The notes beneath the pieces are model-generated. The model was not told the DNA's origin and ran no database searches. It was given only the letters and a program-made list of their open reading frames with translations. DNA of 64,000 nucleotides from Escherichia coli (GTDB lineage: Bacteria > Pseudomonadota > Gammaproteobacteria > Enterobacterales > Enterobacteriaceae), in assembly GCF_003334765.1 (NCBI RefSeq), contig NZ_QOWT01000001.1. One strand, written 5' to 3'. This document shows, piece after piece, positions 12,176 through 20,679 of the stretch. Positions within the stretch are counted from its first letter, which is position 1; every line of letters begins with the position of its first letter. A program made the position numbers and the translations under genes.

Positions 12176-18239
<6,064 letters not shown>

Positions 18240-18412
18240 TACTTACCCGCAGAAATCATTCTGCGGGTATTAAGTTGCTTTCTTATAAATTAATACAGAT
18301 TAATCCTGGTTATTTGCTTTATTTATCACCAGTCATCCGGTATAGTTCTTCATAATCTCTGCAAAATCATCGTGTTGTAATATTCTCTCATCACTCTCCA
18401 TCAAATTTTCTT

Positions 18413-18430
18413 TTTTTCTCCATAATTGGC
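18413..18430 (+). promoter_or_regulatory. BaeR response-regulator box upstream of spy
   Basis: TTTTTCTCCATAATTGGC matches the BaeR consensus TTTTTCTCCATDATTGGC exactly. Confidence 0.7.
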
Positions 18431-18478
18431 GCAAAAGTGTTTTTTACACTTTCATTGTTTTACCGTTGCTCTGATTAA

Positions 18479-18507
18479 TTGACGCTAAAGTCAGTAAAGT
18501 TAATCTC
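18479..18507 (+). promoter_or_regulatory. Candidate sigma70 promoter of spy (TTGACG -35, TAATCT-like -10) with adjacent GTAAA motifs
   Basis: Hexamers read from sequence about 60-90 nt upstream of the spy ATG; Cpx regulation is from knowledge, CpxR box not confidently placed. Confidence 0.4.
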
Positions 18508-18568
18508 GTCAACACGGCACGCTACTTAAGAAAGCCGTAATAAATAACTGAAAGGAAGGATATAGAAT

Positions 18569-19054
18569 ATGCGTAAATTAACTGCACTGTTTGTTGCCTC
18601 TACCCTGGCTCTTGGCGCGGCTAACCTGGCCCATGCCGCAGACACCACTACCGCAGCACCGGCTGACGCGAAGCCGATGATGCACCACAAAGGCAAGTTC
18701 GGTCCGCATCAGGACATGATGTTCAAAGACCTGAACCTGACCGACGCGCAGAAACAGCAGATCCGCGAAATCATGAAAGGCCAGCGTGACCAGATGAAAC
18801 GTCCGCCGCTGGAAGAACGCCGCGCAATGCATGACATCATTGCCAGCGATACCTTCGATAAAGTAAAAGCTGAAGCGCAGATCGCAAAAATGGAAGAACA
18901 GCGCAAAGCTAACATGCTGGCGCACATGGAAACCCAGAACAAAATTTACAACATCCTGACGCCGGAACAGAAAAAGCAATTTAATGCTAATTTTGAGAAG
19001 CGTCTGACAGAACGTCCAGCGGCAAAAGGTAAAATGCCTGCAACTGCTGAATAA
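18569..19054 (+). CDS. spy: Periplasmic ATP-independent chaperone Spy
   Basis: 161 aa with signal peptide MRKLTALFVASTLALGAANLAHA and LTDAQKQQIREI motif. Confidence 0.95.
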   Translation: MRKLTALFVASTLALGAANLAHAADTTTAAPADAKPMMHHKGKFGPHQDMMFKDLNLTDAQKQQIREIMKGQRDQMKRPPLEERRAMHDIIASDTFDKVKAEAQIAKMEEQRKANMLAHMETQNKIYNILTPEQKKQFNANFEKRLTERPAAKGKMPATAE

Positions 19055-19072
19055 TCTTTCAGCCAAAAAACT

Positions 19073-19140
19073 TAAGACCGCCGGTCTTGTCCACTACCTT
19101 GCAGTAATGCGGTGGACAGGATCGGCGGTTTTCTTTTCTC
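19073..19140 (+). terminator. Rho-independent terminator downstream of spy
   Basis: GC-rich nested hairpins (gaccgccggtc; gtccac...gtggac) followed by a T-rich tract. Confidence 0.6.
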
Positions 19141-19178
19141 TTCTCAAACAGTTGTAAAAAAAGCCTGATCACCACTAA

Positions 19179-20679
<1,501 letters not shown>

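Follow-up and report, generated by a model that had tools for sequence, protein, structure and literature searches.

The promoter region of the Escherichia coli spy gene is probably activated jointly by BaeR and CpxR, with an 18-mer located between the two genes of the astE-spy spacer serving as the promoter-proximal BaeR box. The box is real and already known, probably functions as the native BaeR site of spy, and is nothing new in kind. An earlier note, written from the letters of the window (the whole stretch of 64,000 nucleotides analysed here), had claimed an exact BaeR box at 18413-18430; all 18 consensus positions indeed agree on the + strand, and the spy ATG follows 139-156 bp downstream. 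The same note had placed envelope-stress control directly on spy, and this control through BaeR is supported by the effect of a baeR deletion and by BaeR ChIP-exo signal in the spacer.

The gene order in the window is astD-astB-astE-spy-ves-cho-nadE (E. coli annotation), and the features of the region are listed in Table 1. Together with about 200 bp of upstream and 500 bp of downstream flank, the spacer is identical to the minus strand of K-12 MG1655 (NC_000913.3), whose coordinate is given by 1844194 minus the window position. The spacer is found in 5424 of 5426 complete E. coli genomes, with at least 99% identity in 4911 of these. (Right after the astE stop codon, at 18245-18268, there is a perfect 10-bp hairpin, ACCCGCAGAA-ATCA-TTCTGCGGGT, without a T tract, for which the terminator scan gave no call; an Rfam scan of 18000-19300 returned just two sub-threshold chance matches.)

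Table 1. Features of the astE-spy region in window coordinates
Feature	Position	Strand	Remarks
astE-spy spacer	18240-18568		329 bp; astE stop codon to spy ATG at 18569
Upstream promoter P2	-10 TATAGT 18341-18346; start A18354	+	published start; 215-nt leader
Distal BaeR-like direct repeat, TCTTCATAA-N2-TCTGCAAAA	18347-18366	+	11-bp period; 70 bp 5' of the proximal core; MG1655 1825828-1825847
Upstream CTCTCCATCA repeat	18394-18403	+	22 bp before the proximal core; CTCC at 18396 and 18418
Proximal BaeR box, TTTTTCTCCATAATTGGC (18-mer of Nishino 2005)	18413-18430	+	consensus match; MG1655 1825764-1825781
CpxR-type half-sites, GTAAA-N5-GAAAG-N1-GTAAA	18443-18463	-	GTAAA at 18443-18447 and 18459-18463
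Stress promoter P1	-35 TTGACG 18479-18484; -10 TAATCT 18501-18506	+	16-bp spacer; weak -10
GTAAA	18494-18498	+	within the P1 spacer
Small stem, ACGGC/GCCGU	18514-18538	+	5' end of the predicted short spy leader; loop hypervariable
spy coding sequence	18569-19054	+	161 aa; periplasmic chaperone Spy; regulated gene

The consensus to which the box conforms, TTTTTCTCCATDATTGGC, is the BaeR motif published by Nishino et al. 2005, a string confirmed in passages of PMC3799227 and PMC3915751, and the box is its single site in the 64-kb window, even when as many as three mismatches are allowed. Among the three E. coli sites that the consensus covers (spy, mdtA and acrD), spy is the sole member with no mismatch; a single mismatch is present in each of the other two, TTTTTCTCCCTTATTGGC at mdtA and TTTTTCTCCACGATTGGC at acrD. 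Set against these three sequences, the consensus reads as a majority call over them. Because spy is thus among the sites behind the consensus, its exact match is partly circular. As a control for this, a pattern, TTTTTCTCCNNNATTGGC, was made only from the bases common to mdtA and acrD. The spy site agrees with it at 15 of 15 specified positions, which removes the circularity, and no other site in the window fits this pattern with two or fewer mismatches. In addition, the core of the 18-mer, TCTCCATAA at 18417-18425, fits a footprint-derived BaeR box, TCTNCANAA, that was proposed by Yamamoto et al. 2008 (as given in passages of PMC3799227 and PMC3915751).

Conservation of the box was followed with a scan of a genome collection for Spy, which yielded 80 orthologous loci (79 of them full-length, and 38 in a non-redundant set) from Escherichia, Citrobacter, Salmonella, Enterobacter, Klebsiella, Raoultella, Kosakonia, Cedecea, Buttiauxella and other genera. 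Nearly all 80 loci have a recognisable box. In 73 of 78 enterobacterial species its core, TTCTCCATAATTG (with up to three mismatches), starts 63-64 bp upstream of a TTGACG that is itself invariant, so that loss of the motif from orthologous spy promoters, which the earlier note had named as evidence that would count against it, was not seen. The distance from the core to the ATG varies from 143 to 270 bp across these loci. Judged by these spacings, the position of the box is locked on the DNA to the -35 element and not to the ATG.

In the 38 non-redundant species, core positions score about 1-2 bits each, roughly double the level of the flanking DNA. Positions A18424 and T18426 are invariant, and a match of the proximal core to TCTNCANAA with at most one mismatch is kept in 34 of the 38 (exactly in 28). 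The final GC of the 18-mer is not conserved (0.06 bits for G18429 and 0.32 bits for C18430). From the aligned loci, then, the constrained part of the motif is shorter than the published 18-mer, comprising TTCTCCATAATTG but not the final GC. Within E. coli, the 45-mer at 18411-18455, which includes the box, is present with at least 99% identity in 5182 of 5426 complete genomes, some of the alignments beginning at its sixth base.

Two kinds of natural variation in the box were observed. E. coli SCPM-O-B-8794 and several Citrobacter and Enterobacter loci carry the variant TTTTTCTCCACAATTGGC, in which T is changed to C at position 11, recreating the CCAC of the acrD site; since the variant occurs in several loci, the consensus accepts T and C equally at position 11 when species are compared. 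In E. coli ECE170, a clinical isolate (locus L085, 2480-2510), the junction with an IS1 end falls 1 bp past the 18-mer, corresponding to window position 18431/18432, and the DNA upstream of the junction is unrelated, containing Hsp70 and J-domain genes. This isolate has lost the upstream promoter as well as both BaeR-like boxes but keeps the CpxR half-sites and core promoter, making it a natural test strain.

The 18-mer is accompanied by further BaeR-like sequences on its upstream side, so that the region is more elaborate than the earlier note had described. The repeat at 18394-18403 is likely a further BaeR half-site; its CTCTCC block (18394-18399) is conserved at 0.7-1.3 bits per position, and the cross-species consensus of the repeats is ACTCTCCAC-N2-TTTATCCTTATTTTCTCCATAATTG. 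In most other species an ATCC unit lies midway, giving three units, CTCC / ATCC / CTCC, with an 11-bp period, and in E. coli this middle unit has decayed to TTTCT. BaeR would contact each of the repeat units. In E. coli the proximal core is left with just an imperfect TCTNCANAA-type partner, TCTCCATCA, 22 bp upstream.

Exact matches to TCTNCANAA occur on the + strand of the spacer at 18347 (TCTTCATAA), 18358 (TCTGCAAAA) and 18417 (TCTCCATAA). The whole window contains 18 such matches against 8.1 expected, and the Poisson probability of three on one strand within 79 bp is about 2e-7. The two-sequence consensus of the distal units is exactly TCTNCANAA, and it is suspected that the published footprint and its 'direct repeat' refer to this distal pair. 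At -132 to -134 from the -35 element, 34 of 38 non-redundant species have the first distal unit with at most one mismatch; the second is weakly conserved, being present at the same threshold in 16 of 38. Among E. coli genomes, the 32-mer around the distal repeat (18340-18371) has at least 99% identity in 5144 of 5426.

The distal repeat lies on a promoter. Table S1 of Kim et al. 2012 places a transcription start at NC_000913.2 1823864 on the - strand (152 reads; 5' UTR of 215 nt), and the 51-nt sequence given for it is that of window positions 18304-18354. The start at A18354 falls 7 nt after TATAGT, and hexamer and start together have the character of a σ70 -10 element and its start. A TAnnnT sequence occupies the place of this hexamer in 38 of 38 non-redundant species, with positions 1, 2 and 6 fixed and positions 3-5 variable; read from the alignment, this pattern is the signature of a real -10 element. 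P2 overlaps both the distal BaeR-like repeat and a BaeR ChIP-exo peak (peak_2), and because of the overlap with the repeat, conservation of the distal block is not cleanly assignable to BaeR. (In most species a conserved block, ACAGATTAATCCTGG..TTGCTTTATTTA, at 18293-18325, also precedes the TATAGT hexamer; it may represent the -35 or UP region of P2, or a site for a different regulator. An entry in the constitutive-promoter catalogue of PMC3946193 was set aside as not relevant, as it lies in the spy-ves spacer and not 5' of spy.)

Downstream of the box, the TTGACG/TAATCT promoter-like pair described in the earlier note is present where it had been placed, and the σ70 scan leaves it uncalled because TAATCT fits TATAAT at only 3 of 6 positions. 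TTGACG fits the -35 consensus at 5 of 6 positions and is found in 78 of 79 full-length orthologous loci; in TAATCT, A18502 (the A at position 2) is kept in a fraction of 0.92 of species and T18506 (the T at position 6) in 0.84. Transcription from P1 is predicted to start at about 18511-18514, and the start list of Kim et al. 2012 holds only the upstream 18354 start for spy. The P1 spacer contains GCTAA-N5-GTAAA as well as TAAAGT (18495-18500), which is found in 38 of 38 species. With a gap of only 10 bp from the -35 element, TAAAGT is more likely a CpxR half-site than the -10 element, though it may serve as an alternative -10. (Both TAAAGT and CGTCAACACGGCA, at 18507-18519, are almost invariant across about 38 species, beyond the usual need of a -10/start region. 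Readings of the conserved blocks as σ54 or σE promoters were rejected, as the spacings, compared by eye, do not fit.)

The GTAAA motifs that the earlier note had seen downstream of the box are likewise real and conserved, as half-sites and not as a canonical CpxR tandem: GTAAA-N5-GTAAA with at most one mismatch is absent from the spacer, 18240-18568. No regulatory stretch upstream of the -35 element is nevertheless better conserved than 18438-18463, which lies between that element and the BaeR box and has 1-2 bits per position, with several positions invariant. The consensus, together with the published dependence of spy on CpxR, points to CpxR as the protein that would bind the half-sites at 18443-18463.

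The small stem at 18514-18538 may act as a 5' hairpin that stabilises the mRNA. In 24 of 24 species its four predicted pairs can form, two of them with compensatory changes; G-C to A-U changes occur in three lineages, and the loop ranges from about 4 to 45 nt. The fold energy of the E. coli stem is not unusual (z = -0.32).

Published expression data give the two regulators a strong effect on spy. The BaeR binding site upstream of spy is one of four reported in E. coli (PMC2731931). Under ethanol stress, deletion of baeR lowers spy by log2 5.76 and deletion of cpxR by log2 3.04 (PMC7657598 supplement). Induction of spy requires both BaeR and CpxR in Salmonella and also in an E. coli biosensor, and a Klebsiella baeS gain-of-function mutant has spy raised by log2 6.1.

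Published binding data are more complex. BaeR ChIP-exo yields two spy peaks, at MG1655 1825677-1825711 and 1825823-1825843 (PMC7657598), which map to 18483-18517 on the P1 core promoter (peak_1) and to 18351-18371 on the distal repeat (peak_2). These peaks are specific to BaeR: the CpxR table (ethanol) and the KdpE table have no peak in the spy spacer, and sticky spots such as raiA appear in all three tables (PMC7657598). The 18-mer is under neither peak, since one is 42 bp to its 5' side and the other 53 bp to its 3' side. Footprint data placing BaeR elsewhere had been named in the earlier note as a possible refutation, and here its reading is partly weakened, in that the ChIP-exo peaks flank the 18-mer and TCTNCANAA fits 18347-18366 at least as well as it fits the core of the 18-mer. 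The flanking peaks may represent exonuclease stops at the outer edges of a complex of BaeR, CpxR and polymerase. The mdtA box (MG1655 2153945-2153962) is fully under BaeR ChIP-exo peak_5 (2153931-2153967; PMC7657598), and this type of motif is therefore occupied in vivo. For the 18-mer at 18413-18430 itself, occupancy by BaeR is inferred from the identity of the motif and from its conservation.

In the mechanism proposed for joint activation, BaeS would phosphorylate BaeR and CpxA would phosphorylate CpxR under envelope stress, both regulators being of the OmpR/PhoB family. BaeR~P would then occupy (T)TCTCCA-type units that recur in direct orientation at intervals of about one helical turn. 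Of these, the 18-mer would be the promoter-proximal and best-conserved unit, fixed at 63 bp from the -35 element and at about -92 from the predicted start, with an auxiliary repeat 22 bp on its 5' side and the second repeat pair (18347-18366) 70 bp further 5'. CpxR~P would sit on the GTAAA half-sites that separate the box from the core promoter, and the two proteins together would recruit σ70 RNA polymerase to a promoter with a good -35 element (TTGACG) and a poor -10. The geometry of the BaeR dimers on the repeats, the position of the stress start site and the mode of contact with polymerase are those that we infer.

A variation on this scheme, which seems rather improbable, is that BaeR switches promoters by means of two sites 70 bp apart. 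The distal repeat spans about -7 to +13 of the conserved constitutive P2, and BaeR~P on this repeat would silence the long-leader transcript, while the stress promoter P1, with its short leader, would be activated from the proximal box in concert with CpxR. Such a switch would, if true, explain why the BaeR peaks are on two promoter cores and not on the 18-mer; the idea may already be in the published footprint work.

The same ChIP-exo data bear on a reading in which the distal repeat is the BaeR site that matters, and the 18-mer is a weak, auxiliary or unoccupied look-alike. Peak_2 is on the repeat, whose two units yield exactly TCTNCANAA with the 11-bp spacing expected for an OmpR-family dimer, and 34 of 38 species retain the first of these units. 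However, the proximal core is better conserved (28 versus 15 exact matches of 38) and has a rigid spacing to the -35 element, and the 18-mer has its 15 of 15 positions in common with mdtA and acrD, of which the mdtA site is occupied in vivo. The distal conservation is, moreover, confounded by the overlapping P2, with the second unit found in only 16 of 38 species, and we consider it unlikely that the distal repeat is the site that matters. Much less likely still is retention of the motif for a cause other than BaeR, either as the site of another regulator or as an RNA element in the long leader, where its U/C-rich sequence would pair with the ribosome-binding site. Transcription from 18354 does carry the box into the 215-nt leader in unstressed cells, and in the minimum-energy structure of the leader the box, as a U/C-rich RNA copy, is paired with the Shine-Dalgarno region; but the fold is not significant (z = -1.1), the pairing is missing from the centroid structure, and there is no Rfam match. 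In addition, mdtA and acrD carry the motif without such a leader context, and the spacing is locked to the -35 element rather than to the ATG.

Chance can be considered the least credible source of the match. The AT-rich spacer is 37% T, and 0.23 matches with three or fewer mismatches are expected per window; an exact match to the consensus, however, is expected only 5e-6 times per window (both strands, at the base composition of the window) and 8e-8 times within the spacer. The position of the box is kept across about 80 species, a degree of conservation that effectively refutes a chance origin.

Joint activation by BaeR and CpxR through the proximal 18-mer can be compared with what is seen at related promoters. 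According to the literature, mdtA (of mdtABCD-baeSR), acrD and spy are all activated by BaeR. Their boxes have TTTTTCTCC-N3-ATTGGC in common, on the coding strand of the regulated gene, and each is preceded by an upstream CTCC repeat, at 10 bp for mdtA, 11 bp for acrD and 22 bp for spy (about one or two helical turns). The mdtA and acrD boxes end 9-14 bp before the best -10-like hexamer (chosen by eye) and probably overlap the -35 region, whereas the spy box ends 48 bp before a separate, invariant -35 element, with CpxR-type sites between. The spy box is thus about 50 bp further from the core promoter than those of mdtA and acrD, and its activation geometry must therefore differ. A second BaeR-like repeat, 70 bp further upstream, likewise sets spy apart from mdtA and acrD. 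In PMC7657598, the mdtA box lies under a BaeR ChIP-exo peak, the spy box does not, and there is no acrD peak.

Like other Cpx-activated promoters, that of spy has conserved GTAAA pentamers upstream of and within the core promoter, and its expression depends on CpxR. Those promoters carry GTAAA-N5-GTAAA, whereas the best sequences at spy are GTAAA-N5-GAAAG and GCTAA-N5-GTAAA. Sites for activators of the OmpR/PhoB family are tandem direct repeats with a period of about 10-11 bp. The spy repeats are likewise phased at 11 bp, as CTCC / ATCC / CTCC in most species and as TCTTCATAA / TCTGCAAAA distally; in contrast to such tandem repeats, the downstream ATTGG part of the 18-mer is no copy of the CTCCA unit.

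Taken as a whole, recovery of a known box from the sequence is a useful positive control for the motif scan, and adds nothing new in itself. The Bae response to envelope stress has spy as its standard reporter gene. The picture of which bases in its box are constrained, a box position locked to the -35 element, and the coincidence of a second BaeR-like repeat with the conserved P2 and a published ChIP-exo peak are modest by-products, useful for BaeR weight matrices and for spy-based biosensors.
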